DNA of 37,879 nucleotides. Origin: Candidatus Altiarchaeota archaeon. Its GTDB lineage: Archaea; Altiarchaeota; Altiarchaeia; IMC4; QMZM01. The position numbers and the translations under genes are program-made. Shown here piece after piece: positions 9,399 through 37,833 of this stretch. The number at the start of each line of letters is the position of its first letter. The stretch's first letter is position 1. Where the stretch lies: the NCBI GenBank assembly GCA_016931955.1, contig JAFGDV010000023.1, positions 1 through 37,879 of the forward strand. The letters are read 5' to 3'. A model generated the notes under the pieces. It searched no databases and was not told where the DNA came from. It worked only from the letters and a program-made list of their open reading frames with translations.

Positions 9399-9659
9399 AT
9401 GGCCTACAAACAGGACTATACAAAGCCGTTTCTTCAAGACGTTAAAGACATAAAAAAAGACAAAAACCTGTTAAACAGACTCAACAGAAAAATTGATGAA
9501 ATCCTAGAAAACCCAGAACACTACAAGCCATTAAAGAAAGACCTGAAAGGAAAAAGAAGAACCCACATCGGATCATACGTCCTAATATTCGAAGTCCGAG
9601 AAGACACCATCATATTCCACACATTCAAACACCACGACTACGCCTACCAGATAAGATAA
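9399..9659 (+). CDS. RelE/ParE family toxin
   Basis: YTKPFLQDVK...ILENPEHYKPLKKDLKGKRRTHIGSYVLIFEV...HHDYAY; start refined from 9348. Confidence 0.88.
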   Translation: MAYKQDYTKPFLQDVKDIKKDKNLLNRLNRKIDEILENPEHYKPLKKDLKGKRRTHIGSYVLIFEVREDTIIFHTFKHHDYAYQIR

Positions 9660-9693
9660 AACACTGCAACGAAAACAAAAACACCCAGATACA

Positions 9694-9759
9694 AAAAGCC
9701 TGATTCTAGGATGTAGCCGAGGCAGAATAGGATTAAGAGAGCATGTTTTTGTTTTTCAT
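9694..9759. repeat. junction repeat, degenerate A copy followed by B copy
   Basis: AAGCCTGATTCTAGGATGTAGCCGAGG ... GAGCATGTTTTTGTTTTTCAT. Confidence 0.6.
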
Positions 9760-9760
9760 T

Positions 9761-10099
9761 CTATTTGTAGCCGAATCGGCGGTCATACATTTTGTGGTTT
9801 AGGACTTCAAGGACGATGCAGGCCACCCCCGAGTTGTCGCCGACTAGTGAATAGATTAATCTCCAACGGCTGTCAAGGCGAAGCCTCCACAGGTTATTGA
9901 CGCCGAATCTTTGAATATAATACCTAGGGAATAATCTCTTCCGGATGCGTTGGCCGGCACAGAGATCAGATTCCAGCCTCTCTAAGCCTCGGCCGATGAT
10001 CCTGGAGAGGTACTCGGCTTCGCCGTCGCCGCCTGAAGCCTTCAATCGAAGATCCTGCAGTTCGCTGGCGAAACCCGGAGAAAACAGAACCTCGGTCAA
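9761..10099 (-). CDS. archaeal RelE-like toxin
   Basis: NLWRLRLDSRWRLIYSL...LEVLNHKMYDRRFGY; TTG start overlaps the upstream stop. Confidence 0.7.
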   Translation of the reverse strand: MTEVLFSPGFASELQDLRLKASGGDGEAEYLSRIIGRGLERLESDLCAGQRIRKRLFPRYYIQRFGVNNLWRLRLDSRWRLIYSLVGDNSGVACIVLEVLNHKMYDRRFGYK

Positions 10100-10368
10100 C
10101 GTCGATATGGGATAGAATCCTTCAGCAGCTTTTTGAGTTTCTTGTTGTCAGCGAACACCCAGACTATGCGGCCGTTTCTGTCGAAGACTATCTTGTTGCT
10201 GTCGGCCAGATACGCTAAGACTACGCCGAAGGTCTGCCACATCACGGCCTTGGGGAGAGCCCTCCAAAGCTGGTTCTTCGTCGGCGGCTCATCCAGCTTC
10301 CTGAGGGTTTCCTCGACCATCAGGATCGTGTCCAGCCGCGGCAGATGCACTATATTCAGGGGTTCCAT
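10096..10368 (-). CDS. winged-helix-like protein, putative antitoxin
   Basis: PRLDTILMVEETL...QLWRALPKAVMWQTFGVVLAYL..SNKI; coupled to the RelE-like gene; start refined from 10428. Confidence 0.65.
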   Translation of the reverse strand: MEPLNIVHLPRLDTILMVEETLRKLDEPPTKNQLWRALPKAVMWQTFGVVLAYLADSNKIVFDRNGRIVWVFADNKKLKKLLKDSIPYRR

Positions 10369-10441
10369 CTTGTATATAATATTATATATATGGACACATA
10401 TATAAGCTGCAGGACTCCAGGCCCGCACCAGGAGATTATAA

Positions 10442-10492
10442 GGTTTAAAGATTTATAAAGTAAGAGATGTAAAAGCCCACAGACCGGGGACA
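10442..10492. repeat. junction repeat, 3' part of B followed by an A copy
   Basis: GGTTTAAAGATTTATAAAGTAAGAGATGTAAA overlapping TGTAAAAGCCCACAGACCGGGGAC. Confidence 0.65.
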
Positions 10493-10529
10493 GAGATTTT
10501 TATTCTTGTCTGATGTAGAATACTGTAAC

Positions 10530-11747
10530 ATGAAAAAGATGATGATAACATGCTTGACATTGATCCTGCTAACAAACGGATGCCTGCAAACAGACCCCGC
10601 ACTCTGCGAACATATCGCAGACCAAAACAAAAAAGACACATGCTACAACTCACTAGCCATAAACAAAGAAGACTCCCTCTTCTGCGAAAAAATCCAAGAC
10701 CAAAAAACCAAAGAAAAATGCCACAACGACATAGCAAGATATGGAGAAATAACCCTCTGCGAACAAATAACAGATTCACAACAAAAAGACACATGCTATA
10801 ACTCACTAGCCATAAACAAACAAGACCCCCTCTTCTGCGAAAAAATACAGGGCACACAACAAAAAGACGAATGCTACGAATGGATTAGCCAAATAAGAGA
10901 AGACCCCACATTATGCGGAAAAATACAAGACCAGACCACAAAAGACAGCTGCCACACTACAATAGCACAATACACAAAAGACCCCCTAATATGCGAACAA
11001 ATAACAGACCAAGACACCAAAGACAACTGCTACGAAAACATTTTTTCAAACAACAACGACCCCGCAATCTGCGGACGGATTACGGACTCACCACAAAAAA
11101 ACGAATGCTACCTAAAAACAGCCCACAACAACAAAGACGCCACATTATGCGAACAAATCACAGACCAAAACACCAAAAACAGATGCTACTGGACAACAGC
11201 CCTAAACAAAGAAGACTCCACATTATGCGAACAGATTACGGATCCACAACAAGAATATCAATGCTATGATCTGATTGCTAAATCGAGAGGAGATCCCTCA
11301 ATCTGCGAAAAAATCAGAGACCAAAGCACCAAAGACGACTGCTATTTCAGCGCCGCAATATACAAAAACCCCCTCTTCTGCGAAAAAATCCCAAACAAAA
11401 TAAAAAAAGAATACTGTTACACCATGGTCGCCATATACTCAAACAACCCCCTAATATGCGAACAAATCCAGGATCAACAAAAAAAAGGATACTGCCACCA
11501 GAGTATTCTACTTTATAATACAGGCCCAGCATATTGCGAAAAAATCAGAGACCAAAGCACCAGAGACAACTGCTATCTGTCAACAGCCTACGACAGAAAA
11601 GACCCCACAATATGCGAACAAATACAGGACACACAACAAGAATACCAATGCTATGATTTCATTGCTCAATCAAAAGGAGATCCATCAATCTGCGAACACA
11701 TCAGAGACCAAGACACCAGAGAAGTATGCAAAAAATTCATACAATAA
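10530..11747 (+). CDS. Cys-rich repeat lipoprotein (15 repeats of about 26 aa)
   Basis: MKKMMITCLTLILLTNGC lipobox; repeats DPxLCExIxDQxxKDxCYxxIA; ATG at 10530. Confidence 0.88.
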   Translation: MKKMMITCLTLILLTNGCLQTDPALCEHIADQNKKDTCYNSLAINKEDSLFCEKIQDQKTKEKCHNDIARYGEITLCEQITDSQQKDTCYNSLAINKQDPLFCEKIQGTQQKDECYEWISQIREDPTLCGKIQDQTTKDSCHTTIAQYTKDPLICEQITDQDTKDNCYENIFSNNNDPAICGRITDSPQKNECYLKTAHNNKDATLCEQITDQNTKNRCYWTTALNKEDSTLCEQITDPQQEYQCYDLIAKSRGDPSICEKIRDQSTKDDCYFSAAIYKNPLFCEKIPNKIKKEYCYTMVAIYSNNPLICEQIQDQQKKGYCHQSILLYNTGPAYCEKIRDQSTRDNCYLSTAYDRKDPTICEQIQDTQQEYQCYDFIAQSKGDPSICEHIRDQDTREVCKKFIQ

Positions 11748-11794
11748 CACAGTTCTGGCTTTTTATTTTCTTGTTTCACGTAGAATAGTGTAAC

Positions 11795-12832
11795 ATGAAG
11801 AAGATCCTGTTCTCAATAGTTTTGCTCAGCGAAACAGCAACGGCATCATCCAGTGGTCTTCTCATCCGGCTAATCCAGGCACTATACTATCCAGTGTTTT
11901 TCCTAGCAACGCTCATGTACCTATACTGTATCATAGAATACCTGAAAGAAAGAAAAGACAAAAAATACCTGAAACACATAATAATCACCACCATAATAGC
12001 AGCAGCCAGCATAGCAGCCATAAACCTGATAAGCTGGGCCACATATGGATGCGTAATGATGCCCTACGCAGTCAGCGAAAACCTAGACTGCTGGGGTGCA
12101 GGATGCTTCGAACAAGAATGCCACTACAATCTGGCAATTAAAAAACAAGACCCCCTATTATGCGAACAGATCACAGACCAAGAAATCAAAGAAAGCTGCT
12201 ACACTATAGTCGCCATATACAAAGAAGACCTCGACCTCTGCGAAAAAATACAGAACACAGGGCATAGAGAACACTGTTTGATGGAAACAGCCATAAAATC
12301 GGGAAATGCCACAGTCTGCGAAAAATGCCCATATAGAGAATCCAGAGACCTATGCTATACCGCGATAGGAATAGACAAACAAGACCTCACCATATGCGAC
12401 CGAATCCAACACGATTTTGAAAAAATACTCTGCTACCAAAATATTGCAGTTTCCTCATCAAACCCTTTAATATGCGAACACTTCACTCAACCAGAATTTT
12501 GTTATACAAATATTGCAGCAGGAACAAAAAACGAATCAATCTGTGAAAAAATCACAGATCAACAGAAAAAAGAATACTGCTACGAGTCAGTAGCCTCAAA
12601 CAAACAAGACCCTGCATTATGTGAAAAAATCACAGACCAACACGCTAGAGATCGATGCTATGATTCCATAGCCTTAAACAAAAAAGACCCCACATTCTGT
12701 GAACAAATCACAAACCAGACCATCAAGGACAGTTGCTATAATTACATCGCAATAAACAAAAAAGACCCCACTCTCTGCGAACAAATCACAGACCAGGATA
12801 TAAAAGACATATGCACAAACTACACGTCATAA
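11795..12832 (+). CDS. Cys-rich repeat membrane protein (about 9 repeats) with N-terminal hydrophobic hairpin
   Basis: Same 26-aa repeat; signal-like segment plus two TM helices; upstream sequence shared with the 10530 gene. Confidence 0.85.
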   Translation: MKKILFSIVLLSETATASSSGLLIRLIQALYYPVFFLATLMYLYCIIEYLKERKDKKYLKHIIITTIIAAASIAAINLISWATYGCVMMPYAVSENLDCWGAGCFEQECHYNLAIKKQDPLLCEQITDQEIKESCYTIVAIYKEDLDLCEKIQNTGHREHCLMETAIKSGNATVCEKCPYRESRDLCYTAIGIDKQDLTICDRIQHDFEKILCYQNIAVSSSNPLICEHFTQPEFCYTNIAAGTKNESICEKITDQQKKEYCYESVASNKQDPALCEKITDQHARDRCYDSIALNKKDPTFCEQITNQTIKDSCYNYIAINKKDPTLCEQITDQDIKDICTNYTS

Positions 12833-22303: not shown

Positions 22304-23143
22304 CTATCTGTAGTCTGTCATATCTATTGTGTATTCTTCCTCCCCGGTGTGTTTGATCACGACGAACCTTATCTCCCGGTCCCTTAATTCTCCGTAGTCC
22401 TTGAAGACGTAGGTGTTTACTGCGAAGTAGGGGGGTGAACCCGGCCAGTAAGCTGTCGTCTCGGGTGAATCATCCGTTATCGTCTCTATTGGATGGATGA
22501 CTTCGCCCCTCAGCTTTATCACAGCCGCTATGTCGTCTGCGAAATCCTTTGAGTTGCCGTAGAGTTTCACCCTGAACTCTATCTCTCTCCGTGTCGTGAT
22601 TTCATAGATCTCCTCATCGCTTAGTTTCCTGTATTCTCTGGCCTTTGACGCCGCCCTCAGGGCCAGGTTCAGGTATGGCGTGTATACTATGATGTGTTCG
22701 TAGCCTACTGTGTAGTTGGGGTACGAGTATTCACTGAGGATATTCGCCAGATCAAACCGATTCTCTTCACCCCAGTTTATGGCTTCGTCGATTTCTTTTT
22801 CGGTGAGCCACCTCTCCAGGATGGGGATGGTTGTCGTAGTCGTTGTCCTGCAGACGAACTCGCACAGGCACGTTGTCTGATTGATTCCACAGTATTCTAC
22901 CGGTCTTGGATCGCATTGTTGCTGACAATATGTCTGGCAGTTGTCTTCAGTCCAAGGACATGGTTTTGTCGTAGTAGTTGTAGTGGTCGTCGTGGTTTCC
23001 TTGATCATGGTTGTTGGAGGGCAGTCCACTATGTCCGTCACTATTGTGCCGTCCCAGCACTGGTATTCTAGTTTAGGTTCTGATTGGCTGACACATCCGC
23101 AGAATAACGTGATAGAGAGTAAGAGGATTGTTTGCGCCCTCAT
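22304..23143 (-). CDS. lipoprotein with Thr-rich linkers and small Cys modules
   Basis: LFCGC lipobox, CWDG...CP, poly-Thr tracts, globular C-terminus. Confidence 0.8.
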   Translation of the reverse strand: MRAQTILLLSITLFCGCVSQSEPKLEYQCWDGTIVTDIVDCPPTTMIKETTTTTTTTTTKPCPWTEDNCQTYCQQQCDPRPVEYCGINQTTCLCEFVCRTTTTTTIPILERWLTEKEIDEAINWGEENRFDLANILSEYSYPNYTVGYEHIIVYTPYLNLALRAASKAREYRKLSDEEIYEITTRREIEFRVKLYGNSKDFADDIAAVIKLRGEVIHPIETITDDSPETTAYWPGSPPYFAVNTYVFKDYGELRDREIRFVVIKHTGEEEYTIDMTDYR

Positions 23144-25541: not shown

Positions 25542-28500
25542 ATGAACCTTAAGCAGAGAATCTTGGCTGTGTTGGTCTTTTTTATATTATGCTCTGGACT
25601 TACTGTGGCGGATTATGGTCGAATCTTATCTGTCCAAGAGAATTCTGGCAGAGATCTCTCGGATTATCAGGTTTTGGTTAATCTTTCAGGGGATGATTTC
25701 CCTGTTGAGTCAGCAGCAGGCGGTTCTGATATACGCTTCTACGATATGTATGGCCTTATGCTGCCTTACTGGATTGAGTCTTTTGATCCCTCCTCGCCTG
25801 AGGCGCTTATCTGGGTCAGGGTGCCTTTTATCCCTGCTAATGAGACAGCAGCTCTCTTGGTTTCTTGGGGGGAGCCTTCTCTGCCTGCGGTGAGCAATGC
25901 TTCCGCCGTCTTTGAGTGCTTTGACGACTTTGAGTCAGGCAGCTTAGGGAACTGGCAGGTTGTCGCAGCTAGTTGGTCTATCATCAATGAATCAGGTAAC
26001 TTGGTTATTAGGGGTAGTGGGGGTTCGAACACCCATCATGGCTTGGCTTGGAAGGGATTTGTTCCCTTAGCGCCTGGGATTGAGGTGAAAGCGAGGGTTA
26101 AAAACATCGACCCATATAGTTCTAGTCCTGGTAGGGTGGATCCTGGCATCTATTGGGGTTATACTTCTCTTGCAGGTTCCGCACTCCCTGGTTATGCTGC
26201 TAACTCAGATAACAGGTATCATAGGCTTCGCGTTGTCAGGTCTACGGGTTCTGAGACCATCCTTGATTCTCAATACATATCCTCTATGAGTTCTTCAAAA
26301 TACTATACCTACATCCTTCGTGTACAGGATGATGGTTCTCTCTCTGGCATGATACTTGACGGCGATTCTGTGATATATTCTACGAATGCTGTTGACCTTA
26401 CCTATGTGAGCTCAGCAAACCATCCTGGCCTATTTGCCGACTTCGACGGCAAAGCAGGTTACTGGGATGATTTCGTGGTTAGAAAATATACATATCCTGA
26501 GCCGAATGTATCAATAAGCGAGCTTCCCGTACCTAGGCTTTTTGGGTTCTCTGACAACTTCAGCAGTGATTCTGGTATGTGGACGTATGTGGGCAGCGCC
26601 TATCGTGATGCAACGAACGAGTATGTGGTTCTCACGACAAATGGAGGCGGCCAGGTCGGCGTCGTCTGGCTGAAGGAGAATATTTCGTCGAATTTTTCTG
26701 TTGACTTCAGGTATTTGATCACCTACTGTGGGTTTTATAGGGGGGATGGTATGGTTTTCATGTTTTATAAGGACCGCAATTATGTGCCTGGCAGTGGAGG
26801 GGCTCTTGGGTTCATCGGCTCCCCTTCAGTTGTTCCAGGCTATGGCGTCGAATTCCAGACTTGGCTGAGCAATCATGTTTCCTTGATTAAGGACAGCGTC
26901 GACAACCATCTAAAGTCCGTCGGCGGCTCGTGCTACTGTGATGGAGTGTGGCATAATGTTTCAGTCAGAGTCAACGATTCCGGTGTCTCAGTCTTCCGTG
27001 ATGGCGCCTTCCTGTTATCTTGGAGTGGTACTATGAATCGTTCCTTTGGTGGCTTCGGTTTTTCGGCCGCCACTGGTATGGCTGTAGAATACCATATCAT
27101 CGACGACTTCAGGATAACTGCGGGTCATTCGCCTTCTCCTCCTGAACCAGGGCCGGCATTCAATTTCTCCATCTCTGATAACCAGACCACGTCTGTCGGC
27201 GGAGACGCAGTTTATGCGTTAACTCTGAGCAACCCGAACATGTTTCCATTAATTCTTAATCTGAGCGTCTCCGGCCTTGATGCAGGCTGGTTTACTCTGA
27301 GCGATGAGTCTGTGCTTCTGGTCGCCGGTGAAACACGTGATGTCTTGTTGTATGTGTCCGTCCCCGAAGACTGTGGCGCTGCCGGAGTCCGTCTCTTTAG
27401 TGTTTCTGCAGGCGGAAAGTCTGTTGATTCTGTTTTATTCGTCGATTCTGCGCCCATAATCTCTGATCTGATACCTCATAACTACTCTACTCTGAGCTCT
27501 AATGATGTCTTGTTTTCCTGGAAGACGTCTGTGAACTCCTCCACAGAGTTGTTCCTTAAAGAGGAATCTGAGCCTGATTTTTCATCCCTTGTGGGCGTTA
27601 ATGGATTAGATCATGTTGTGCTTGCATCTAATCTTACCAGGAATATGCTCTACTCTTGGTATGTGCGCAGCTATTCTGTCTGCGGCTGCTCTAACTCCTC
27701 TGAGAGAGTCTTCTACGTAGACAACGGCGTCGTATTCACTCAGGATGATTACTTCTTTAATGTTGAGCGGGACTATAACCAGTATGTTATCCTCTCTGTC
27801 AGAAACCTGGATTCTGAGTCTCATACCTTATTAGTTCAGGCCATGAACCCCTACGATGACCTTATTGTGGGCTTCGTCGGTAATGGTTCACTTGACCAGA
27901 ACCTCGGCCTTGATCCGGGTGAATCCGCTGACATGCATTTCATGGTCCATGCTCAGGATGCGATGCTTGAAGACTATTCTCTCCTTGTTAATCTCACAAA
28001 CCTTGGCGTGGAGAACATCTCAGACTATGCCGTAGTCCACGTCCATGTCCGCCGTCCCAACATCAATTTCACGTTAACTGAGCTTAGTGTGAATCCAGTG
28101 ACCTTGGCGAAGACTTATAAGATAACTAACTACGGGGATCCGATAACAGACCTCAAGGTGTCTGCGGATGATAGTCTTTCCGCTGGTCTTTTGTTTAATC
28201 CTGTTATAAACCACGGCAACCTCCGTAGCGGTAATTCAGTCGAATTTGAAGCCATCCCCGTCCTCTTTGAGAATTTCACGGGCATTGTGGGCGAGATCAG
28301 GGTTCAGGGGTTGGATTCTGTTGTGGTGGGGGGCGCTAACTTTACTCTGCCTCCAGGCAAGCAGGTCTATCTGGGTAAGGTGTATAATCCTCAGTTGTGC
28401 ATTCAACTGGAGGACTGGTATTGCAGTAACCGCCCTAATGTCGACATATACTTTGATATTCCTGCGGGGTACTTTGCGGATAATTCTCAGAGCGGCACCC

Positions 28501-29588
28501 TGCGTATGTCGTTTGACCCAAACTATGATAACTGGCATGTTAAACCCCATAATGTCTACTTGAGCGTTAACGGGCACTCGGTTGGCTCCATAATCAACAG
28601 GATTCCTGAAGATAGTTATTCCTTCTCCTTTAGTCCGGAGCTTCTGCACTATTCTGAGAGCGGCGTCGGACGTAACGTTATCAGTCTGCGCTCAACTCAT
28701 CCTCCAGGCCATTACTCCGTCTATTACGGCGTTGGAGTATGTACTTGTCTGGATGAGTATTCTGGCTATGTTGTCGCCACTAGTTCGGAGGAGGCCAGCG
28801 AGTTGTTGTGGAGTTTAAGTTTCCTATTCAAGAGTTCATCGTTTATCGACTTTGAGTTGTTGTCTCCTCTTCTTGGTGAAGAGTTGGTCGCCGGCAGGCC
28901 TACTGTGGTGAGGGCGCGGGTTATCGATGATGGTTCAGGCGGCACCTACCCTGTGAATGCTTCTTTTTCAGGCGGCAAGGTTGTCTGGTTGTTTGATGAC
29001 GGAAAGCATGGCGACGAGGTTGCTGGGGATGGGGTCTACACCAACTATGTGGTTCCTCCTATGGCTCATACAGGCAGCCTTAATCTCTACTCCGAGAACT
29101 GTGTTACATCTGCCTTGTTTGAATTGGATTTCAACATATCCTTGCTTCCTGACTTGGCGGTTTCCTCTGCAGGCATATCCTTCTCTAATCCTTCTCCTGC
29201 AGTCAATGAATCCATAACAGTTGATGCTAGAGTCCACAACATCGGATACGATAATATCTCGGATGTCCGGGTTCAGTTGTTCGTTGGCTCTGATACGTTA
29301 TCTGAGCAGGTTTTTCCGTTTTTGCCGGTTGGCAGCCACGTTTCTGTTTCAGCGAACTGGACTGCTTCAGCAGGCGACCATCTTTTCTCTGTTTTCGCGG
29401 ATCCCTACGACGCCATCCCTGAAGTGTATGAGACCAATAATTTTGCCTCTAGGCTGCTTTCCGTAGGCGGCGGAGGTGGGGGTGGCGGAGGAGGTAATGG
29501 GACAGGTAATGAGACAGCAGGTGATCTTCCCGACCTGGCCGTCTACGGCCACGAGATCATTTTCATGAAGATTGGGGGTGGCGGATGA
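25542..29588 (+). CDS. large secreted adhesin-like protein (DUF2341, ConA/legume-lectin-like, Ig-like, choice-of-anchor-X-like, CARDB)
   Basis: Signal peptide; DIRF..LPYWIE..IWVRVP; GDGMVFMF; LFDDGKHGDEVAGDGVYT; PDLAV...ETNN; Gly linker and a terminal lone PDLAV strand. Confidence 0.85.
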   Translation: MNLKQRILAVLVFFILCSGLTVADYGRILSVQENSGRDLSDYQVLVNLSGDDFPVESAAGGSDIRFYDMYGLMLPYWIESFDPSSPEALIWVRVPFIPANETAALLVSWGEPSLPAVSNASAVFECFDDFESGSLGNWQVVAASWSIINESGNLVIRGSGGSNTHHGLAWKGFVPLAPGIEVKARVKNIDPYSSSPGRVDPGIYWGYTSLAGSALPGYAANSDNRYHRLRVVRSTGSETILDSQYISSMSSSKYYTYILRVQDDGSLSGMILDGDSVIYSTNAVDLTYVSSANHPGLFADFDGKAGYWDDFVVRKYTYPEPNVSISELPVPRLFGFSDNFSSDSGMWTYVGSAYRDATNEYVVLTTNGGGQVGVVWLKENISSNFSVDFRYLITYCGFYRGDGMVFMFYKDRNYVPGSGGALGFIGSPSVVPGYGVEFQTWLSNHVSLIKDSVDNHLKSVGGSCYCDGVWHNVSVRVNDSGVSVFRDGAFLLSWSGTMNRSFGGFGFSAATGMAVEYHIIDDFRITAGHSPSPPEPGPAFNFSISDNQTTSVGGDAVYALTLSNPNMFPLILNLSVSGLDAGWFTLSDESVLLVAGETRDVLLYVSVPEDCGAAGVRLFSVSAGGKSVDSVLFVDSAPIISDLIPHNYSTLSSNDVLFSWKTSVNSSTELFLKEESEPDFSSLVGVNGLDHVVLASNLTRNMLYSWYVRSYSVCGCSNSSERVFYVDNGVVFTQDDYFFNVERDYNQYVILSVRNLDSESHTLLVQAMNPYDDLIVGFVGNGSLDQNLGLDPGESADMHFMVHAQDAMLEDYSLLVNLTNLGVENISDYAVVHVHVRRPNINFTLTELSVNPVTLAKTYKITNYGDPITDLKVSADDSLSAGLLFNPVINHGNLRSGNSVEFEAIPVLFENFTGIVGEIRVQGLDSVVVGGANFTLPPGKQVYLGKVYNPQLCIQLEDWYCSNRPNVDIYFDIPAGYFADNSQSGTLRMSFDPNYDNWHVKPHNVYLSVNGHSVGSIINRIPEDSYSFSFSPELLHYSESGVGRNVISLRSTHPPGHYSVYYGVGVCTCLDEYSGYVVATSSEEASELLWSLSFLFKSSSFIDFELLSPLLGEELVAGRPTVVRARVIDDGSGGTYPVNASFSGGKVVWLFDDGKHGDEVAGDGVYTNYVVPPMAHTGSLNLYSENCVTSALFELDFNISLLPDLAVSSAGISFSNPSPAVNESITVDARVHNIGYDNISDVRVQLFVGSDTLSEQVFPFLPVGSHVSVSANWTASAGDHLFSVFADPYDAIPEVYETNNFASRLLSVGGGGGGGGGGNGTGNETAGDLPDLAVYGHEIIFMKIGGGG

Positions 29589-32500
29589 TGGATCATAGAA
29601 CCTCTCTCTTGGTCGTCTTTGTTGTTCTGTTGTCGACTTTAGGCGCTGCTGCCGGCTTCGATGTCTCCGTTGTCCCGAAGAAGGAGGAGGTGTCGGTTGG
29701 TGAAGTGGTTGACGTCGTCGTGGAACTCTCGAGTAAAGACTTTGAAGGCAACCTCTCTCTTTCAGTAGTTCTTGATAAAGAGGGGATTGATCTTTCCTGG
29801 TTTAATTGGTCTTCTCTTAATGTTTCCCTTTCTTTGGGTGAAGTGAGGGTTATCCCCTTGCGGGTCAATGTTCCCTTCATCACTTCTTCTGGGAATAAGA
29901 AGTTTGTCGTGGAAGCTGTATCCTCTGACAAGTCCTCATCCGGTAAGTGTATGTTTAAGGTCTTTGATTCTTCGCCGAGTGTTTTTCTGTCTTCTCCAGT
30001 GAATGACTCCTTCGTTGAAGACATTGTTGGAGTGGATGGCTTTGTTTCTGGCACTGATGTCCTGGTTTCTTTGTCTGTGGATTCTTCCTTTGTCTCCAGT
30101 TCTTTGCCTTATCTCTGGAATACGTCAGAATACCTGGATGGAGGGCATGTTTTGTCTTTGACCGCTTCCAGTAAAAAGGATTCTAATTCATCGTCCGTGT
30201 TTGTGGAAGTGGATAATACCTGGCCTTCTGTTTTGTTCTATTCTCCCTTGAATGGTTCCTGTGTTGCGGGTTTGGTTGAAGTGGATGGTTCTTTCTCTGA
30301 TTTGTATCTTGATTCCACGAACTTGAGCATCGACGGCGTGGTCGTCTCCGATGTTTTGCCTTATACTTGGGATACTTCCATTTACTCTGATGGCTGGCAT
30401 ATCCTTTCTCTGTCAGCCTCTGACTTCATAGGTCATCAGTCATCTGTGAGTAATCATCTTTACGTTGACAACACGCCTCTTAGTCTCTCCGTCTTTGAGC
30501 TTACCGTGAATCCTACTTTGGAGGATCCTGAGTACACCCTCTTGGGTGTGGTGAACAAGAATGCCTCTGTCTACGTTAACGGCGTCCCTGTTTCTTTGGT
30601 GAATCTTTCTTTCATGCGCTCTCTTACCTTGCATGAGGGCCTTAACTCTGTAGAAGTCGTTGCCCTGGATTGCGTGGGTAGGAATGTTTCTTGGACTCAG
30701 TCTCGTGCCTTGGACGGCGACCGTCTTCCTGATTGGTATGAGTTGTCTGTTCTTGGAACTGATCCATTGGATGGTGACTCAGATGATAACAACATCTCGG
30801 ATGGTTTTGAGGATTTTGACTCTGATTGGGTTTTGAACTATTTTGAGTTTCTTTTCTTGACTGATCCCTTCAGTAATGACACCGACGGTGATTCTTTGTC
30901 TGACTTCTTCGAGCTCCAGTACCTGGGTTCTTCTCCTCTTCTTTTTGACTCTAATGGCGACGGCTTTTCTGATGGTGTGGACGACCCCGACGGCGATTCT
31001 TTGTCTAATCTGGAGGAGCAGTCTGCCGGCAGTCATCCTTGGCATAATGACTCCGACTTCGATGGTCTTTTGGATCCTGAGGAAATAGTTTTTGGCTCTG
31101 ATCCTATGTGGTTTGACTCCGACGGTGATTTTCTCAGGGATTGGAGTGAGCGTAACTTGGGAACTGATCCCTTGAATAATGACAGTGACTTTGATGGTGT
31201 CTTGGATGGTTTGGAGCTTTATTCTCTTAAATTCTTGAGCAATGATAGCCTGGCTTCTGCCGTTGTCACCGGAGTCGGCGACTTCACTGGCTTGGTTTCT
31301 GTGGAATATTTTTCTGAGAATCCCCTCTTCGCCTATGGTAGTCTTCCGGGTTTTGTTTCTGCCGCCGAATTCAGGTCAGCCAGAAATTTTTCGTCTGCCA
31401 TGATCAGGCTTTATTATCCTTCCTCCGTCAACGAATCTAACTTGTCTTTGTTTTACTGGGATCCAATTGACCTGGAATTCATTGAAGTCGCCAACCAGAC
31501 TTGGAACCCAGATGAAGACTACATCGAAGCCGAAGTAAGCCATTTTTCATTTTATTATCTGTTTGATTCGGGCAGGGTGTTTCGTTCTTGGGATAGTATC
31601 TTGTTTGACCTTGGTGATGTTGTCCGTATTTCTGTTCCCGTCTATAATTCAGGTAATGATTCTGCTTTTGATGTTCGTGTTGGCTTGTTTGTGGGTGATC
31701 CTTTTGATGGTGGTTTTTTGGTGGATGAGGATGTTATTTCTTATATTGCTCAGGATTCCTATGAGGTGGCTTCTTTTTCTTATACGTTGTCTGATGACTT
31801 GGAGTTGTGGGTTGTTGCTGACTTTGATGAAGCCATTAATGAGTCTAATGAGGCGAATAATGACGCTTTTGTTGTGTATTCTACGAAGGATTCTGATGGG
31901 GATGGTTTGTCTGATTGGGAGGAAGTCTACGGTACTAGGTTGACTTATCCTTGGTTGCTTGTCTCTCATCCTGATCCTTGGTCTGTTCCTGATTTTAAGG
32001 GTTATGGTCTGCCTAATGTTGACTCTGACTGGGATGGTGTCCCTAATTTCTTGGATAATGATTCGGATAATGATGGTCTTTTTGACTGGGAGGAGGTCAC
32101 TGGGGTGGAATTGTTGGGCGGCAGACGCTACCACACATACATCTCCGATCCCTACAGCCCGGACACAGACAGAGACGGATTGACCGACAAAGAAGAAGTC
32201 GACGGCTGGTATGTGAAGGTTATAGATACTAAAGAAGAAGCTATAGCCTGTTATATGGCGTTTTTGGATGCTGAGAATAGGGGAGAAGAACCTACGTCGG
32301 TGGATATTACGGAATACATTGAGGAGTATGCTGTGGTTTCTAATCCTCAGGTTAATGATTCTGATCTTGATGGTGTTTTGGATTCTGAAGAGCGTTGGGC
32401 TGGTTTAGATCCTAATAAGGGTGACACGGATGGAGATTATATCCCTGATCTGGTTGAGTTGCATGGTCCCTACTTGGATGCTGATTTTTTTGATATAACT

Positions 32501-34576
32501 GGCCCTAAGTTTTCGCTTATCGATACTGAAGAACTTGGTTATCTTAAGTTCAGGTTGACTTATCGTGTCTATGACGAGGCTGGTTTGAGCGAGGTTGCAT
32601 TGAGGAAGGACGCACCTTTTGATGTTATAGAAGAACCTCAAGTCTTACCTCCTGGTAATCCAACTGAACATAATTTTTATTTTACTATATCTGCTTTGGA
32701 TGCTGTGACGGGTTTTAATGTTGTCATGAATGGTTCTGATATTCACGACAATTTTGATTCGCATGTTATAAATTGGGATGGATTGTTTGTGGAGACTGCT
32801 AAGGGAGCATCTGAATGGTATATCTTGCATTATAAGGATAGTATGAATCCTTTTGCTGGTGGGGCTTTATGTGGTATGTTTTATGGTATAGGAGGTACTG
32901 CGCAGGATATCACAAGTATTGCTGCGGAGATTGCTGATGATCCCTCTACGTTCATAACTATTATTCAGGATACGGGGGAGAGTTTTGACGAGCATGGGAT
33001 TTCTTTTCCGCAGAAGGTTTTGGATGCAATGGGTGCTCAGGTTGAAGTGTATCAGAAAGATGTGAATCCGTTTGGTAATGGTTCTGTGGAGTATGATGAG
33101 TTTAGGACTGGTTTTTATTGGGGTTATGCTGGTGGTGTTGGTGTCACTTTTCTTGTGCCTGTGGCGGGTGTTGCTAAGGCTCCTCCGCAGATAGCTAAGT
33201 ATTTGAATGTGTTGTCTGGTGCGAAGCTGGTTAGGAATATTGCTTTTATCTCTAGTAGTGGGGCTGTTGTTGGTTATGTGTTGACTGAGGTTTTCCCGGA
33301 TAGTGAACTTATCAGGGATATTTATCATACTACTCTGGGTGTTGCTGTTTTCGCCGATACTGCTTGGATTCTTCATGGAGCTGGGGTGAATGTTGTTAAG
33401 CTTAAGAATTATGCTGTTAATAGTTGCAAGTTGAGTATTAGGTTTGGTAGGGCTAAGTTGGCTCAGTTTACCAGCAAACTTACTTCTGTTTGGGGGTCCA
33501 CTAAGACTGAGAGCTTTGTCAGTAAGTTGCCTTCGACTGTTCAGGATGATCTTTTCTTGGTTTATGAGTCTAATCCTGCAGTTGTCAATGAGGTGTATTT
33601 GACGAATCTTGACTCTAAGGTCACGGTTTTGTTGGATGAGGGTTGGTTTGGCGTTGATGCTTTGGAGGCTTCTACTGTTCGGGAGGTTGGTCTTACGTCT
33701 GTTGTGGCTGTCAACTATGCACCTGTTGAGTTTGTAGGGTTTACTGCTGCCGAGTTTGACAGTGTTTTGTTGTTGGAGGAGGGTATTCCTGGGAGCGTGT
33801 CTGCGTTGTCGTCTAGCAGCGAGTTGTCTGGAGTCAATAAGCTGGTTAAAGTCGCCGAAATTAATCGTCGGGTGCCGGGCAGTGGTCAGAGTATTGGGGG
33901 AATAATGGATAAGGCGGGTGCGTCTGAGTCTGTGGATGCTTTGTATGCGGCTCGGCGTCCTTATCTTGGTAAGGGTATTCGTGAAGTCATTGAGAGAGAG
34001 AAGACTTTGTTGAAGGTTAATGGTTTATCGGCGAATGCGCCTCAGGCTCAGGAATGTTTGGAGTATTTGGGTAAAATAGAGAGGAATGCTAATAATATTC
34101 GTGCCGCAGGTTTTGATCCGGGTGAGGTGTCGAAGTGGGCGAAGGGGCGCATAGAAGTGGATGGAGTAGGTAAACCAGTCAAGACAGCGGCAACATCCAA
34201 TAACGTAGGCAACCTTGAAGGCGACCTGTTCGAACTGGAAACCTCATACAAGAAACCAACATCTAGGGGCGCGGGAGTAAAAGATATGGGCAAAACAATA
34301 CGCAACAGCGCAGGCAGCACCGACGCGGATGTTAGATACCTTAACGGAGACATACGAGAAAGCAAAAACATAGACTGGAGTAAGGTTAAACCAGGAACAG
34401 ATGAGTATACGGACCTTACTAATAATTTACAGCATAAGTTGAATGTTTTCAAAGTGTATAAAAGTAGCAATCCTTCAGCAGAAATTAGATTTAGTTTTAA
34501 AGGTGATTTGAGCGACGTGGAGAGCGGAATCAGAACATGGCTTGAGGGAGAGGGATATATCGTGGAGGGTATTTGA
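29585..34576 (+). CDS. secreted polymorphic-toxin-like protein: Ig-like domains, DxDxDG Ca-binding repeats, CARDB, hydrophobic region, C-terminal PD-(D/E)xK-like nuclease
   Basis: Signal peptide; many D(S/T)DxDG repeats; Gly/Ala-rich hydrophobic helices near 32850-33390; C-terminus GDLFE...TDADV...RESKN; ATGA overlap with the upstream gene. Confidence 0.8.
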   Translation: MMDHRTSLLVVFVVLLSTLGAAAGFDVSVVPKKEEVSVGEVVDVVVELSSKDFEGNLSLSVVLDKEGIDLSWFNWSSLNVSLSLGEVRVIPLRVNVPFITSSGNKKFVVEAVSSDKSSSGKCMFKVFDSSPSVFLSSPVNDSFVEDIVGVDGFVSGTDVLVSLSVDSSFVSSSLPYLWNTSEYLDGGHVLSLTASSKKDSNSSSVFVEVDNTWPSVLFYSPLNGSCVAGLVEVDGSFSDLYLDSTNLSIDGVVVSDVLPYTWDTSIYSDGWHILSLSASDFIGHQSSVSNHLYVDNTPLSLSVFELTVNPTLEDPEYTLLGVVNKNASVYVNGVPVSLVNLSFMRSLTLHEGLNSVEVVALDCVGRNVSWTQSRALDGDRLPDWYELSVLGTDPLDGDSDDNNISDGFEDFDSDWVLNYFEFLFLTDPFSNDTDGDSLSDFFELQYLGSSPLLFDSNGDGFSDGVDDPDGDSLSNLEEQSAGSHPWHNDSDFDGLLDPEEIVFGSDPMWFDSDGDFLRDWSERNLGTDPLNNDSDFDGVLDGLELYSLKFLSNDSLASAVVTGVGDFTGLVSVEYFSENPLFAYGSLPGFVSAAEFRSARNFSSAMIRLYYPSSVNESNLSLFYWDPIDLEFIEVANQTWNPDEDYIEAEVSHFSFYYLFDSGRVFRSWDSILFDLGDVVRISVPVYNSGNDSAFDVRVGLFVGDPFDGGFLVDEDVISYIAQDSYEVASFSYTLSDDLELWVVADFDEAINESNEANNDAFVVYSTKDSDGDGLSDWEEVYGTRLTYPWLLVSHPDPWSVPDFKGYGLPNVDSDWDGVPNFLDNDSDNDGLFDWEEVTGVELLGGRRYHTYISDPYSPDTDRDGLTDKEEVDGWYVKVIDTKEEAIACYMAFLDAENRGEEPTSVDITEYIEEYAVVSNPQVNDSDLDGVLDSEERWAGLDPNKGDTDGDYIPDLVELHGPYLDADFFDITGPKFSLIDTEELGYLKFRLTYRVYDEAGLSEVALRKDAPFDVIEEPQVLPPGNPTEHNFYFTISALDAVTGFNVVMNGSDIHDNFDSHVINWDGLFVETAKGASEWYILHYKDSMNPFAGGALCGMFYGIGGTAQDITSIAAEIADDPSTFITIIQDTGESFDEHGISFPQKVLDAMGAQVEVYQKDVNPFGNGSVEYDEFRTGFYWGYAGGVGVTFLVPVAGVAKAPPQIAKYLNVLSGAKLVRNIAFISSSGAVVGYVLTEVFPDSELIRDIYHTTLGVAVFADTAWILHGAGVNVVKLKNYAVNSCKLSIRFGRAKLAQFTSKLTSVWGSTKTESFVSKLPSTVQDDLFLVYESNPAVVNEVYLTNLDSKVTVLLDEGWFGVDALEASTVREVGLTSVVAVNYAPVEFVGFTAAEFDSVLLLEEGIPGSVSALSSSSELSGVNKLVKVAEINRRVPGSGQSIGGIMDKAGASESVDALYAARRPYLGKGIREVIEREKTLLKVNGLSANAPQAQECLEYLGKIERNANNIRAAGFDPGEVSKWAKGRIEVDGVGKPVKTAATSNNVGNLEGDLFELETSYKKPTSRGAGVKDMGKTIRNSAGSTDADVRYLNGDIRESKNIDWSKVKPGTDEYTDLTNNLQHKLNVFKVYKSSNPSAEIRFSFKGDLSDVESGIRTWLEGEGYIVEGI
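33773..33921 (+). repeat. 149-bp pre-toxin direct repeat, copy 1
   Basis: Ungapped match to 35221-35369; last 69 bp (33853-33921) identical. Confidence 0.95.
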
Positions 34577-34579
34577 ACT

Positions 34580-35134
34580 ATGGGCGGAAGCTTTTTTATA
34601 AAAAATTATAGGGAAGTAGCTTTTTTCAAGTCCGATATTTGTGCGAAAATAGTATCCCAATTCATTGACTTGGGGGCCATATACAAGCCAGAATTTGGTT
34701 ATTGGAGTGAAACAAAAGGCAAAGTTAGTAAGGCAACTTTAAAAGAAGCCACCAATGACGTAAGCACACAAGGGGGCTCAATACATTTTTTTTACAAAGA
34801 CATAGACTTCAGCCTAAGTTTACATTTTAAGGGTTTCATCAACCTCAAGAAGTATGGCATAGTCAGTTTGTTCATTGATCGTTGTTTTTTTAATTGGGAG
34901 ACCCTTGATTTGCTTGAGAACTATGAAATCTTCACCAGATTTGCTGAGGAGGCTTACAAGCTGATCGATCCAGTATTCTGTTGCGCCTACTACAACCAAT
35001 ACGACAAGACGGTGGATGATGCTTTCCTTGATGAGGCGCGTAAGAAGAGGAGGACTTGGGAAGAACTGAAAGAGGAACTGGAAAAGGCAATCGAATTAGA
35101 CTTGAAGTTGAAAGACCTTAAGCCGAGTAAATAA
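34580..35134 (+). CDS. putative immunity protein 1
   Basis: Starts 3 nt after the toxin stop; no signal peptide; aromatic-rich; call is positional. Confidence 0.65.
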   Translation: MGGSFFIKNYREVAFFKSDICAKIVSQFIDLGAIYKPEFGYWSETKGKVSKATLKEATNDVSTQGGSIHFFYKDIDFSLSLHFKGFINLKKYGIVSLFIDRCFFNWETLDLLENYEIFTRFAEEAYKLIDPVFCCAYYNQYDKTVDDAFLDEARKKRRTWEELKEELEKAIELDLKLKDLKPSK

Positions 35135-35136
35135 AA

Positions 35137-35991
35137 GTGGCGAAAGCTAAGTATCATGTTTGGTTGACGTTACTGTTCTGCTTATTAGTCTTATCCAGTC
35201 CAGTTTCTTCTACTAACTCCTTGGAGGAGGGTGTTACTGGTTCGGTGTCTGCGTTGTCGTCTAGCAGTGAGCTTTCGGGTGTCAGTAATCTGGTTAAAGC
35301 CGCCGAAATTAATCGTCGGGTGCCGGGCAGTGGTCAGAGTATTGGGGGAATAATGGATAAGGCGGGTGCTGGTCGTAGCTTGGATTTGTTGTATAGTGCC
35401 CAACGAAGTGATTTGTTGGCGGGTGAGTTGGCGGTTGTTCGCAGTGGTCGCACTATTCCTGAAGTCGCAGGTGGACTGTCTCCAGCTAAGACTGAGGAGG
35501 TGTTGGAGTATTTGGGGAAACTGGAGAGACGATACGGCAGCAGTGCAATAGAAGGGAAGAATACTTTGATCTGGGCTGTGGAAGATGAAGGAGGTGTTTC
35601 AACCATAAAAAACACCAAAATAAAGGGCACGACACTGGTAGTGGAAGGAGATAACTATTATGGGTATACGCACTACTGGAAAAAACATGTTACAGGCACA
35701 ATCCCCAACGGAGACTTGTTCAAAGACATGTTCCCCGAAATAGCCGGCAACGAAGAAGCTTTTCTTAGAGAATGGGTACCTAAAACAATAAAGAACGGAG
35801 ATGTAGTAGCCCTTAGTAGCAGTAGGTTTGGGTATGTTATTGAGCCTTTTGAAGATGGGAGAAAAATGTTGGTAGTAGTTGAATACAACTTTGATGTTAA
35901 AATTGGCATTGACTTTACTCAAAGTAGTGGTTCTACTCAAAGTAGGCTAATAACCACTTACCCCTGTATAACTAAACCAAATTGTTTTTGA
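35137..35991 (+). CDS. second toxin cassette: signal peptide + pre-toxin repeat + alternative C-terminal domain (possible BECR/EndoU-like RNase)
   Basis: GTG start; shares LEEG...GGIMDKAGA and LEYLGKxER with the 1663-aa protein; unrelated C-terminus with GYTHYWKKH and LITTYP. Confidence 0.75.
   Translation: MAKAKYHVWLTLLFCLLVLSSPVSSTNSLEEGVTGSVSALSSSSELSGVSNLVKAAEINRRVPGSGQSIGGIMDKAGAGRSLDLLYSAQRSDLLAGELAVVRSGRTIPEVAGGLSPAKTEEVLEYLGKLERRYGSSAIEGKNTLIWAVEDEGGVSTIKNTKIKGTTLVVEGDNYYGYTHYWKKHVTGTIPNGDLFKDMFPEIAGNEEAFLREWVPKTIKNGDVVALSSSRFGYVIEPFEDGRKMLVVVEYNFDVKIGIDFTQSSGSTQSRLITTYPCITKPNCF
35221..35369 (+). repeat. 149-bp pre-toxin direct repeat, copy 2
   Basis: 35301-35369 identical to 33853-33921. 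Confidence 0.95.
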
Positions 35992-35997
35992 TTTAAA

Positions 35998-36537
35998 ATG
36001 GATAAATTTCGGATAGAAGTTGGGGATTTAACGAAGTATGGGGATAAATCTGAGCTGCGGGGCTTTTCTCATGAAAACCCAAATCTTCATCCACTGGATG
36101 TCTATACTTTTGCAGAAATCTCCGTTTATTTTAATGGCGAGCTTATTAATTCTCCTCGAGCAAAAGAAAAGGGTTGGAATTCATCAGCTACAGCATATTT
36201 ATTGAATTTCTTCCAGGATCTTCTTTCTGAAAAAGTATATTCTAATGGAGAACAATATGATGCTCGTTTAGATTATGGTGGTCCAGGATTTTATTTTAAG
36301 CGAACAGGTGAGAACATGGAAGTTAGTTTCGGCCCTTCGCCGCCAAATGAATACAGTCGAGTGACTGTCTCGTATCTGGATTTTCTCGAGGAGGTTCTCC
36401 GGGCTAGTGGAGAGTTCCTCGATAAGTTATTTGAGATTAATTCTAAGCTTAAGGATCATGAGGATATTGCGGCGTTGATTAAAGAGCGTGAGCAGGTTAA
36501 GGCATTATATGAGCGACTGAAGAATGAGAGTAAATAG
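35998..36537 (+). CDS. putative immunity protein 2
   Basis: Starts 6 nt after the cassette-2 stop; no signal peptide; no visible similarity to immunity 1; call is positional. Confidence 0.65.
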   Translation: MDKFRIEVGDLTKYGDKSELRGFSHENPNLHPLDVYTFAEISVYFNGELINSPRAKEKGWNSSATAYLLNFFQDLLSEKVYSNGEQYDARLDYGGPGFYFKRTGENMEVSFGPSPPNEYSRVTVSYLDFLEEVLRASGEFLDKLFEINSKLKDHEDIAALIKEREQVKALYERLKNESK

Positions 36538-36634
36538 TTTTCTGTTCAGGTTAGGTGTATTATGTCTCCTGCTTAGTGTTGTTCTCTCACCCGCGGCGAC
36601 TGCTTTGGATTCTTTGTCTGAGTTGTCTGCGTAA
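36524..36634 (+). pseudogene. signal-peptide-only stub, possible truncated third cassette
   Basis: MRVNSFLFRLGVLCLLLSVVLSPAATALDSLSELSA*; ATG overlaps the immunity-2 3' end; not in the ORF track. Confidence 0.55.
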
Positions 36635-36656
36635 GGTTGCTGGGGTTTCAGGGGAG

Positions 36657-36713
36657 ATATGTAAACTTTTTGTTCAGGTTATTTATATATGAGTTTCCTA
36701 TAAGTTTACATAT
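36657..36713. promoter_or_regulatory. 12-bp perfect inverted repeat bracketing a TATA box
   Basis: ATATGTAAACTT (36657-36668) and AAGTTTACATAT (36702-36713) around TTTATATAT (36682-36690). Confidence 0.65.
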
Positions 36714-37833
36714 GGAGTATGAGATCCTATCCCACCTACTGTTAAGCGGGGAAAAATCTGTAAAAGAAATAGCCGAGTTATTGAAGATATCGGAGACCTA
36801 CGCCTCCAAACTCACGGATAGGATGGAGCGAGAAAATCTGGTATCAAAGAAGAGATCCGGCAGACAGGTTATTGTAAAACCAAATACAAGCAGCCCCCTC
36901 GTCAAGGAATTCTCAAGATTCGTCGTCATCGTGGGAAACCACCCACCATACACGCCAAAGGATTTCCTAACACCCGAAAGCAAAAGAATAATAACCAAGT
37001 CACTAATCAAAAAACCAAAAAGCATCAAAGAGATAAAAAAAGAGACAAAATACTCGAGAGTCACCATAAACAAGACACTGAAATCCCTGAAAAAATCAGG
37101 GATCGTGAAAACAGAAGACAGAAGACCTAGGAAGTATCATACCACAGACAGCCCACTAACCAAGGCATTGACTCCGATAATAGAATACCTAGAACTAGGC
37201 ATACGATCAAAAAATGTGTTAAACAGGATAGCATCCGACCCCAGAACAGAAGCCTTAGTAGTATACGGCTCAGAGGTGTGGGGCAGAAAAGACGAACTCA
37301 GCGACGTAGATGCGTTTGTGGTCGTTGATTCACCAGAGAACGTAAAGGCTATTAAAGAATATGAGCAAGAAGGTTTAGAACTGAACGCATTCTCCAGGAA
37401 AGGCTTAGTCCATCTGATACGAAGAGAGCCGTGGTTTTTCAGGTTAATCCTCCAAGGCAAAATCCTGACCGGAGAAGACTTCTTGAAGGACATATCTGAT
37501 ACCCGATCAAAGGGAGACACAGGTGAAGTGGTTGGAGAGATAAAGGAAATGCTTGAGGGCTTAGATAGGATTACATCGACAGAAAAAGCCAAGATCCTTA
37601 TGTACTGTATAAGAAGCCTCCTTGTATTAAGATTACATCAAGAAGACAAACTGTCCTGGGAAAACTATTACAGGGAATTAGATAAGGAGTATCCACGATA
37701 CAAGGAGATAAGGAGGATGCGTCATGGTCTGGGAGAAGTCAAAGCCAAGGACATAGAAAACATAAGAGATAAACTGTTGAAGGAGATAGGATATGTCAAA
37801 AAAGAGCAGAAAAAAATCAGCAACAAGCCTTGA
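36712..37833 (+). CDS. tandem wHTH + nucleotidyltransferase (MNT-like) fusion protein
   Basis: Two ArsR/MarR-like HTH units, then YGSEVWGRKDELSDVDAFVV (GS-x10-DxD) and a helical tail; start refined from 36637. Confidence 0.85.
   Translation: MEYEILSHLLLSGEKSVKEIAELLKISETYASKLTDRMERENLVSKKRSGRQVIVKPNTSSPLVKEFSRFVVIVGNHPPYTPKDFLTPESKRIITKSLIKKPKSIKEIKKETKYSRVTINKTLKSLKKSGIVKTEDRRPRKYHTTDSPLTKALTPIIEYLELGIRSKNVLNRIASDPRTEALVVYGSEVWGRKDELSDVDAFVVVDSPENVKAIKEYEQEGLELNAFSRKGLVHLIRREPWFFRLILQGKILTGEDFLKDISDTRSKGDTGEVVGEIKEMLEGLDRITSTEKAKILMYCIRSLLVLRLHQEDKLSWENYYRELDKEYPRYKEIRRMRHGLGEVKAKDIENIRDKLLKEIGYVKKEQKKISNKP

Follow-up and report, generated by a model that had tools for sequence, protein, structure and literature searches.

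A polymorphic-toxin-like locus with two candidate toxin/immunity pairs in an archaeon of the Altiarchaeota

Introduction

In contact-dependent growth inhibition (CDI) systems (CdiA/CdiB), the variable C-terminal (CT) toxin comes after a conserved junction motif and is followed by an immunity gene, and orphan CT/immunity cassettes lie downstream. Here we analyse a locus of five genes, termed A–E, on a 37,879-nucleotide (nt) stretch of the genome of Candidatus Altiarchaeota archaeon (assembly GCA_016931955.1, contig JAFGDV010000023.1; the whole stretch is hereafter the window). An initial annotation of this DNA had proposed an archaeal polymorphic toxin system with an adhesin partner and swappable toxin/immunity cassettes. 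Our analysis favours, with some reservation, the reading that A–E are an antagonism locus of polymorphic-toxin-like type, exported through Sec and comprising two toxin/immunity pairs.

Polymorphic toxin loci encode a long secreted protein, a small gene, and then a homologue of the pre-toxin region with another C-terminus and its own small gene (PMC3482391, PMC8416519). The bacterial Sec-dependent toxins assigned to the type II secretion system (T2SS) class may be surface-anchored or diffuse, and classical systems are described as rare in archaea, with about 15 of about 225 genomes at the time of that study (PMC3482391). Many archaea are predicted to possess polymorphic toxin systems (PTS), none of which had been characterised experimentally as of 2021, and nucleases (DNase or RNase) are the commonest toxins of these archaeal systems (PMC8416519). 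Some of the archaeal systems identified have effectors that contain immunoglobulin (Ig) domains (PMC8416519, citing Makarova et al. 2019, mBio). For large proteins that archaea secrete and that contain several CARDB domains, the same source counts an arCOG 'often associated with PTS' as one of the most frequent.

Results

Gene layout and comparison with described systems

The five genes lie on the + strand, span positions 25542–36537, and have intact frames throughout:

25542..29588, + strand: gene A, 1348 amino acids (aa), secreted surface protein
29585..34576, + strand: gene B, 1663 aa, secreted protein
34580..35134, + strand: gene C, 184 aa, putative cognate immunity protein of CT1, the C-terminal module of B
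35137..35991, + strand: gene D, 284 aa, GTG start
35998..36537, + strand: gene E, 179 aa, putative immunity protein of CT2, the C-terminal module of D, by position only

The gaps A–B, B–C, C–D and D–E are −4, 3, 2 and 6 nt, respectively, and 99 nt separate E from the next open reading frame (ORF), F. The spacing of 2 and 6 nt indicates that D is co-transcribed with C and E. Export signals were judged from hydropathy alone. By this measure, B starts with a hydrophobic segment at residues 4–31 (hydropathy 2.3) and A likewise has a signal-like N-terminus, whereas the small proteins C and E contain no hydrophobic segment. The host is an archaeon, as the genes around the locus match archaeal-type families and its genome (1.55 Mb, 46 contigs, 92% complete) encodes ribosomal protein S4e with a score above the family cut-off; among 14 control genomes, this family is matched in the 4 archaea only. 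The tight coupling of five genes, the cytoplasmic type of the small gene after B, and the archaeal host, all given in the initial annotation, are borne out.

The locus matches the polymorphic toxin layout in its export signal, its downstream small gene and its second unit that repeats the pre-toxin region. Unlike polymorphic toxin systems in the sense of Zhang et al. 2012 (PMC3482391), however, its C-termini match no recognised toxin family. With the predicted archaeal systems it shares a long secreted first protein followed by candidate immunity and further C-terminal toxin genes. By comparison with the families described for archaeal systems in the available portions of the literature cited above, the pre-toxin segment, both C-terminal modules, both small proteins and the presence of a second candidate toxin with its own signal peptide are distinct and appear to be new.

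The bacterial T2SS-class toxins (PMC3482391) resemble the locus in combining a signal peptide, a repeat-rich trunk, a pre-toxin region, a C-terminal toxin, an immunity gene and alternative toxin genes, the last three being candidates here. By contrast, the locus was found to contain none of the repeats and processing proteases that this paper gives for the class (HINT, caspase, ZU5, RHS, ALF and others), and its host is an archaeon without an outer membrane. The features in common with CDI are a conserved junction before a variable C-terminus, a candidate immunity gene, and a second CT/immunity pair that carries the junction region. This arrangement is nevertheless distinct from CDI: A and B contain no TPS domain, haemagglutinin/FHA repeat or VENN motif, the locus has no CdiB-like or transporter gene, and its second unit possesses its own start codon and signal peptide. 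Likewise, no RHS/YD repeat, HINT domain or Rhs core of the Rhs/YD-repeat toxins is matched in A or B, and the defining domains of MafB-type systems are absent from the locus. In Pfam searches, Rhs, HINT, haemagglutinin and TPS domains gave no match in A or B (E ≤ 0.1) or in segments of B (E ≤ 1), in agreement with the earlier statement that Rhs, Hint and haemagglutinin domains are not visible here.

A repeated pre-toxin segment precedes two unrelated C-termini

The central feature of the locus is a segment that occurs in both B and D and is followed by a different module in each:

33773..34087, + strand: shared 'pre-toxin' segment, copy 1, residues 1397–1501 of B, ending in LEYLGKIER
33772..33921, + strand: near-identical DNA block, copy 1, with an exact run at 33853–33921
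35220..35369, + strand: near-identical DNA block, copy 2, in D
34088..34573, + strand: CT1, residues 1502–1663 of B (162 aa), putative restriction-endonuclease-fold toxin
35533..35988, + strand: CT2, residues 133–284 of D, second module unrelated to CT1, no family match

D is built of a signal-like part (residues 1–28), the shared segment (residues 29–132) and CT2 (residues 133–284). Residues 1397–1501 of B and 29–132 of D are 64% identical (67/105, E 9e-24), which substantiates the earlier description of a second ORF that repeats the pre-toxin region with a different C-terminus. The similarity between the proteins ends just past LEYLGK[IL]ER, and the C-termini beyond this motif are unrelated. 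At the DNA level, positions 33772–33921 of B and 35220–35369 of D are identical at 135 of 150 sites (90%), including an exact run of 69 nt. After this 150-nt block the identity drops to 58 of 134 columns (43%), followed by an island of 21/26 at LEYLGK. The repeat is far beyond chance, because the longest word common to B and D elsewhere is 11 nt. The sharp step in DNA identity follows '...MDKAGA' and precedes the LEYLGK motif by about 55 codons. Thus, LEYLGKxER, previously taken as the junction, holds as the point where protein similarity stops, whereas the break in the DNA lies upstream of it. The 150-nt block is a candidate substrate for homologous recombination, and the host genome bin contains two copies of the conserved block only. 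A third copy was considered in the E–F spacer (36590–36632), where one frame resembles the Ser-rich start of the block; blastn-short and relaxed tblastn report none, and we regard this copy as unproven.

Neither the segment nor residues 960–1396 of B have a match in Pfam (E ≤ 10 or E ≤ 1), NCBIfam, PHROGs or PADLOC, and the segment is exceedingly rare. Its profile, run against 1,835,955,588 representative proteins, found three: B, D and P0003, a 420-aa singleton protein from a 2869-bp contig. The alignment of P0003 with B (E 3e-14) begins about 55 residues upstream of the segment and includes the first helix of CT1, where it ends; the C-terminus of P0003 looks CT1-like at this first helix. A search for further C-terminal variants on the pre-toxin segment, as suggested in the initial annotation, has therefore yielded one foreign protein, and one that resembles CT1 at its start. 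A MAFFT alignment places the DAK of P0003 opposite the non-catalytic S-A-G of CT1, and an alternative drawn by eye has no statistical support; neither pairing was retained. The segment was found nowhere in the metagenome contigs or genome contigs scanned, and residues 1001–1663 of B have no match in 40 related genomes. Searches at near length returned the window itself only for CT1 (E ≤ 10) and D itself only for D. In the Protein Data Bank (PDB), sequence and profile searches with CT1, CT2, a CT1+P0003 profile, C and E gave a best E of 0.021, to a beta-galactosidase, which we judged to be chance. Synteny with relatives is limited to a purF-like gene and an SDH proteinase, where the contigs of the relatives diverge or end.

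Because all modules are orphan ORFs (ORFans) with almost no relatives, D could be viewed as a remnant of a partial duplication of the 3' end of B with no current function, and C and E as unrelated chance ORFans. We consider this very improbable. The reading frames are undisrupted, the five genes have remained tightly spaced, and the modelled complex of CT1 with C, described below, is confident and specific with respect to controls. Furthermore, a 69-nt exact run beside 43% identity points to recent conversion or selection rather than to uniform decay.

CT1 as a candidate nuclease module

CT1 contains a sole [DE]xK motif, E91-S-K93 (E1592/K1594 of B), which is preceded by G45xxxE49 and D79/D81 and followed by Q115. 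The signature of Tox-REase-7 is given as GxxxE, IxD, ExK and Q (PMC3482391, Table 2). CT1 follows this signature for GxxxE, ExK and Q; its D is present, but within T-D-A-D rather than as IxD. CT1 thus resembles the Tox-REase domains (PF15646–PF15649) in these signature elements, and 16 of its 30 nearest Atlas neighbours carry such a family, whereas their hidden Markov models (HMMs) find no match even at E ≤ 10 within the host genome. We propose that CT1 is most likely a putative metal-dependent nuclease of the restriction-endonuclease fold. In this regard, the PD-(D/E)xK-like C-terminus of the initial annotation is retained as far as the motif is concerned, while its fold is backed by neither an HMM nor a structural model.

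C is predicted to bind CT1 over its putative catalytic residues

Modelling of toxin–immunity complexes had been put forward in the initial annotation. In silico, CT1 with C passes such a test: the model has a median score of 0.78 (0.78, 0.79 and 0.78 in the individual runs), as compared with 0.00, 0.37 and 0.01 for three controls, so that the pair stands well clear of the best control. The mean predicted local distance difference test (pLDDT) values are 81–83 for the partner and 77–85 for the other chain, and at least 70% of contacts are common to the runs. Of 78 solved complexes, 51 reach the mark of this test, as do 2 of 108 mismatched pairs; a pass is best read as likely binding, not as immunity.

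The modelled interface on CT1 includes residues 48–49, 74–79, 81 and 91–96, and covers E49, D79, D81 and E91-S-K93, residues that had been read as catalytic before the model result. No solved complex like CT1–C is detectable by sequence in the PDB, so it is unlikely that the model reproduces a known structure. C may thus be regarded as a putative cognate immunity protein of CT1. It is unrelated to E (best E 0.22). The collection used comprises 61 species genomes of the phylum, and homologues of C were found neither in the 60 besides that of the host nor in genome contigs, viral contigs or the PDB, a search that did not include the 5.8-billion-protein set.

Several observations weigh against the reading of CT1 and C as a toxin/immunity pair, and of A–E as an antagonism locus. 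The composite GxxxE...D...[DE]xK...Q occurs in CT1 and in the C-terminus of P0003 and is absent from CT2, C and E, but shuffled sequences contain it as well (63 of 5000 for CT1, 211 of 5000 for the C-terminus of P0003), with spacing ranges that were chosen after the sequences had been seen; the bare E...D...[DE]xK core is present in about half of the shuffles. Although 16 of the 30 nearest language-model (Atlas) clusters of CT1 carry a Tox-REase family, the neighbours have 124–159 of 256 features in common with it, below the 170 typical of family members, and are therefore compatible with chance as well as with distant kinship. Neither CT1, CT2, C nor E matches a curated toxin or immunity family in Pfam (E ≤ 10), NCBIfam, PHROGs or PADLOC, and the HMMs of Tox-REase-2, -3, -5, -7 (PF15649; family cut-off 25 bits) and PBECR1 have no match in the host genome at E ≤ 10. 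Past the first helix, CT1 aligns with the C-terminus of P0003 no better than shuffled sequence does, as its score is equalled or exceeded by 199 of 300 shuffles. AlphaFold2 models were unusable, with mean pLDDT values of 33.8 (CT1) and 33.4 (second model). The isoelectric points (pI) of CT1 (5.96, not basic) and C (5.82, not markedly acidic) are unlike those of many nuclease/immunity pairs, and no charge complementarity was found between the two. The complex test is also passed by 7 of 44 blindly drawn neighbouring gene pairs. In addition, C-terminal polymorphism among homologues cannot be shown, because the segment occurs in three representatives, two of which are B and D. Finally, a cell anchor is recognisable in neither A nor B, and the locus shows no sign of delivery machinery.

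D resembles an autonomous secreted protein

The N-terminus of D, overlooked in the initial annotation, is signal-peptide-like, with a hydrophobic stretch at residues 6–26 as judged from hydropathy. Its first 28 residues display the layout of a Sec signal peptide: they are rich in Lys at the start, continue with about 13 residues of hydrophobic core and finish in small residues. The frame opens two codons before the GTG, which lies 2 nt after the stop codon of C. Because of this signal-peptide-like N-terminus, D looks like an autonomous secreted protein, and it is more likely a second secreted toxin than a silent orphan.

By comparison, D/E had been interpreted as a swappable cassette. In the classical form of this model, D/E would be an unexpressed orphan pair that becomes active only after recombining onto B, and the signal peptide of D would be incidental. 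The 150-nt copies are indeed direct repeats placed such that a crossover would fuse the trunk of B to CT2, and polymorphic toxin systems as a rule have orphan cassettes in which part of the conserved region upstream is retained (PMC3482391). We nevertheless judge a silent cassette decidedly unlikely. The start codon immediately after C, the signal-peptide layout and the spacing of D from its neighbours all speak against it. Moreover, a joined B::CT2 form was not seen in the one sediment metagenome run that contains the locus, although contigs drop rare variants and this is no evidence that the form does not exist. Two metatranscriptome runs of the same study yielded nothing that could be placed on the locus, which counts neither for nor against expression.

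This run possibly derives from the source sample, hence is not independent, and is kept as contigs. Its contigs break exactly at both repeat copies, and one of them spans 33892–35330 without a difference. Two further contigs of 700 and 417 nt, with depths of 36 and 42 as compared with about 31, resemble the window over no more than 80 and 102 nt of the conserved block (7 and 9 differences, respectively), beyond which they continue into unlike sequence. Their copies of the block are about 91% identical to the window at 33821–33900 and 35279–35380, and the two contigs are missing from the genome bin, which suggests that further module variants are present in the sediment community. The sole joint reported in the run, from 33900 to 36609, has 21 letters on its short side, under the reliability limit, and is regarded as a mapping artefact.

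As to the module itself, CT2 has Atlas scores that are all below 0.9 and thus offer a weak lead only, and relatives were found neither in the 60 other phylum genomes nor by sequence and profile searches of the PDB. E, assigned by its position, is a putative immunity protein of CT2; it has no homologue in the 60 other phylum genomes, viral contigs or the PDB, the 5.8-billion-protein set not being included.

The trunk of B and the role of gene A

From its N-terminus, B consists of a signal-like segment, Ig-like beta-sandwiches, a TSP3 region, a CARDB domain, a second TSP3 region, about 440 aa without a family, the shared segment and CT1. The trunk regions are as follows:

30707..31264, + strand: TSP3-type Ca-binding region 1, residues 375–560 of B, PF18884 TSP3_bac at 28.3 bits (cut-off 25)
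31619..31864, + strand: CARDB domain, residues 679–760 of B, PF07705, E 8.6e-08, above cut-off
31862..32479, + strand: TSP3-type Ca-binding region 2, residues 760–965 of B, PF18884 at 26.5 bits (cut-off 25)
32462..33772, + strand: family-less region, residues 960–1396 of B, no Pfam match at E ≤ 1

A CglD-like match also occurs at residues 391–557. Residues of about 1090–1270 form Gly-rich, weakly hydrophobic stretches, in which a hydropathy of 1.58 is reached at 1219–1237 only. A search with residues 1040–1400 among the 914–2911-aa proteins of 5.8 billion sequences returned B itself only, and matches to the trunk within the phylum are to single domains, in 13 of 61 genomes. The initial annotation had seen in this protein a possibly new trunk and delivery type; as Ig-domain effectors have already been reported for predicted archaeal systems, together with secreted CARDB proteins (PMC8416519), this claim is weakened.

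The N-glycosylation sequons are unevenly distributed along B. Residues 1–1000 contain 24 sequons where shuffling predicts 8.3, an about three-fold enrichment, whereas residues 1001–1663 contain 2 where 4.6 are expected; none occurs after residue 1165, and none in D. This pattern is in keeping with a stalk on display whose cargo has to remain unmodified.

The trunk domains (Ig-like, CARDB, TSP3 and lectin-like) are of adhesion type, which brings a different function into consideration. The C-termini of B and D could be variable recognition or adhesion modules that bind different ligands or partners and thereby confer self/non-self recognition, as proposed for VARTIG of the Thermococcales, and C and E could be their chaperones or partners. 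VARTIG (arCOG07710) is similar to the present locus in being an archaeal operon that begins with a large Ig-domain secreted protein with a variable C-terminus, followed by variable genes (PMC8416519). That source describes an archaeal layout of polymorphic-toxin-like type in which no toxin can be identified, and puts forward hypotheses of recognition for it. In line with a recognition function, no toxin family is detectable in A–E, and the complex model speaks to binding only.

On the other hand, the variable part of VARTIG is described as a recombining Ig domain, and its downstream genes often encode membrane or Ig proteins, with no toxin found (PMC8416519). By this description the two are set apart, since the variable parts of the present locus are modules other than Ig domains, and a small gene without a hydrophobic segment comes after each of them. 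A cytoplasmic binder of a secreted C-terminus fits an immunity protein or a chaperone; a stable extracellular partnership is unlikely, because C and E lack an export signal while B and D have one. Furthermore, the modelled CT1–C interface falls on the sole [DE]xK motif and its acidic partners, more than half of the Atlas neighbours of CT1 carry a Tox-REase family, and the C-termini are free of sequons, unlike the displayed trunk. Taken together, we regard a recognition function as rather unlikely and prefer the toxin/immunity reading.

Gene A encodes a signal-like N-terminus, a DUF2341 domain, a lectin/LamG-like region, a choice-of-anchor-X domain, a CARDB domain and a poly-Gly tail, with 31 N-glycosylation sequons. 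Giant surface proteins with domains in common with A are present in 30 of 61 phylum genomes, and several of them in the host genome. The initial annotation had cast A as the adhesin partner of B. This assignment loses weight, as the overlap of 4 nt between the stop of A and the start of B is the sole tie between them and A is a mosaic of domains that are widespread in the phylum. Contigs of the sediment run are cut at 29461–29496, and the A/B junction therefore has no independent assembly support. A simple fusion of A and B by one frameshift is impossible, because upstream of the start codon the frame of B remains open for no more than 20 codons.

Two side observations concern A. At its end (29461–29588), a poly-Gly run is followed by what appears to be the first strand of another CARDB domain before the stop, 4 nt into B. 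Elsewhere in the host genome, several further giant open frames on contigs C38, C40 and C42 (1884, 5136 and 2843 aa) match A in DUF2341, lectin-like or CARDB domains.

Discussion

Proposed mechanism and significance

In the reading that we prefer, B would be a glycosylated, Ca-binding surface protein that carries CT1 as its last 162 residues. CT1 would act as a nuclease inside a competitor cell, while C would stay in the cytoplasm of the producer and protect it by binding over the catalytic residues of CT1. D would be exported by its own signal peptide as a second toxin, with the same 105-aa segment in front of CT2, and E would serve as its immunity protein. A crossover between the direct block copies, if it took place, would delete CT1, C and the signal peptide of D and fuse the trunk of B to CT2, with E kept. 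In this scheme, the gene layout, the repeat, the export signals (by hydropathy), the domain content, the rarity and the archaeal host are observed, and binding of CT1 to C over the motif is supported in silico. Nuclease activity, the toxicity of either module, the pairing of D with E, actual recombination, and passage of the S-layer and the membrane are predictions.

A bolder extension, which we consider unlikely, is that the 105-aa segment is a new, lineage-private delivery or docking module. Interchangeable toxic cargoes would then sit at the tip of the glycosylated, Ca-stiffened B stalk, or be exported as D and subsequently loaded or co-delivered, and would cross the S-layer and membrane of a neighbouring archaeon, with the Gly-rich region before the segment as a membrane-entry device; this would constitute a contact-dependent inhibition route with no homology to bacterial ones.

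The locus provides a compact test case, comprising a 162-aa candidate nuclease with named putative catalytic residues and a 184-aa candidate immunity protein with a confidently modelled interface. It also offers an internal non-cognate pair (CT2 and E) and a 150-nt repeat with an exactly predictable recombination product. If the proposed reading is true, the locus would contain new toxin and immunity families, and archaea would build such systems from their own surface-protein domains, beyond importing bacterial ones.

Neighbouring features of the window

Gene F (36637–37833, + strand) encodes two winged-helix domains of MarR/TrmB type and a nucleotidyltransferase domain, and its PADLOC matches are limited to the helix-turn-helix parts of CRISPR-associated regulators. 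Situated at least 99 nt from E, it could be a regulator of the locus. Upstream of A, positions 22304–23143 (− strand) encode a 279-aa protein with a hydrophobic N-terminus followed by a Cys (lipoprotein-like), poly-Thr linkers and Cys-rich stretches, which is probably another surface protein. Further upstream, at 5450–12832, the + strand is A-rich, with an AT skew of +0.26 to +0.40, and the ORFs at 10506–11747 and 11795–12832 contain tandem repeats of 78 nt (26 aa). The 4 kb at about 6500–10500 have the composition of the neighbouring repeat ORFs, yet contain ORFs of at most 112 aa, and may represent degraded or frameshifted genes of repeat proteins.

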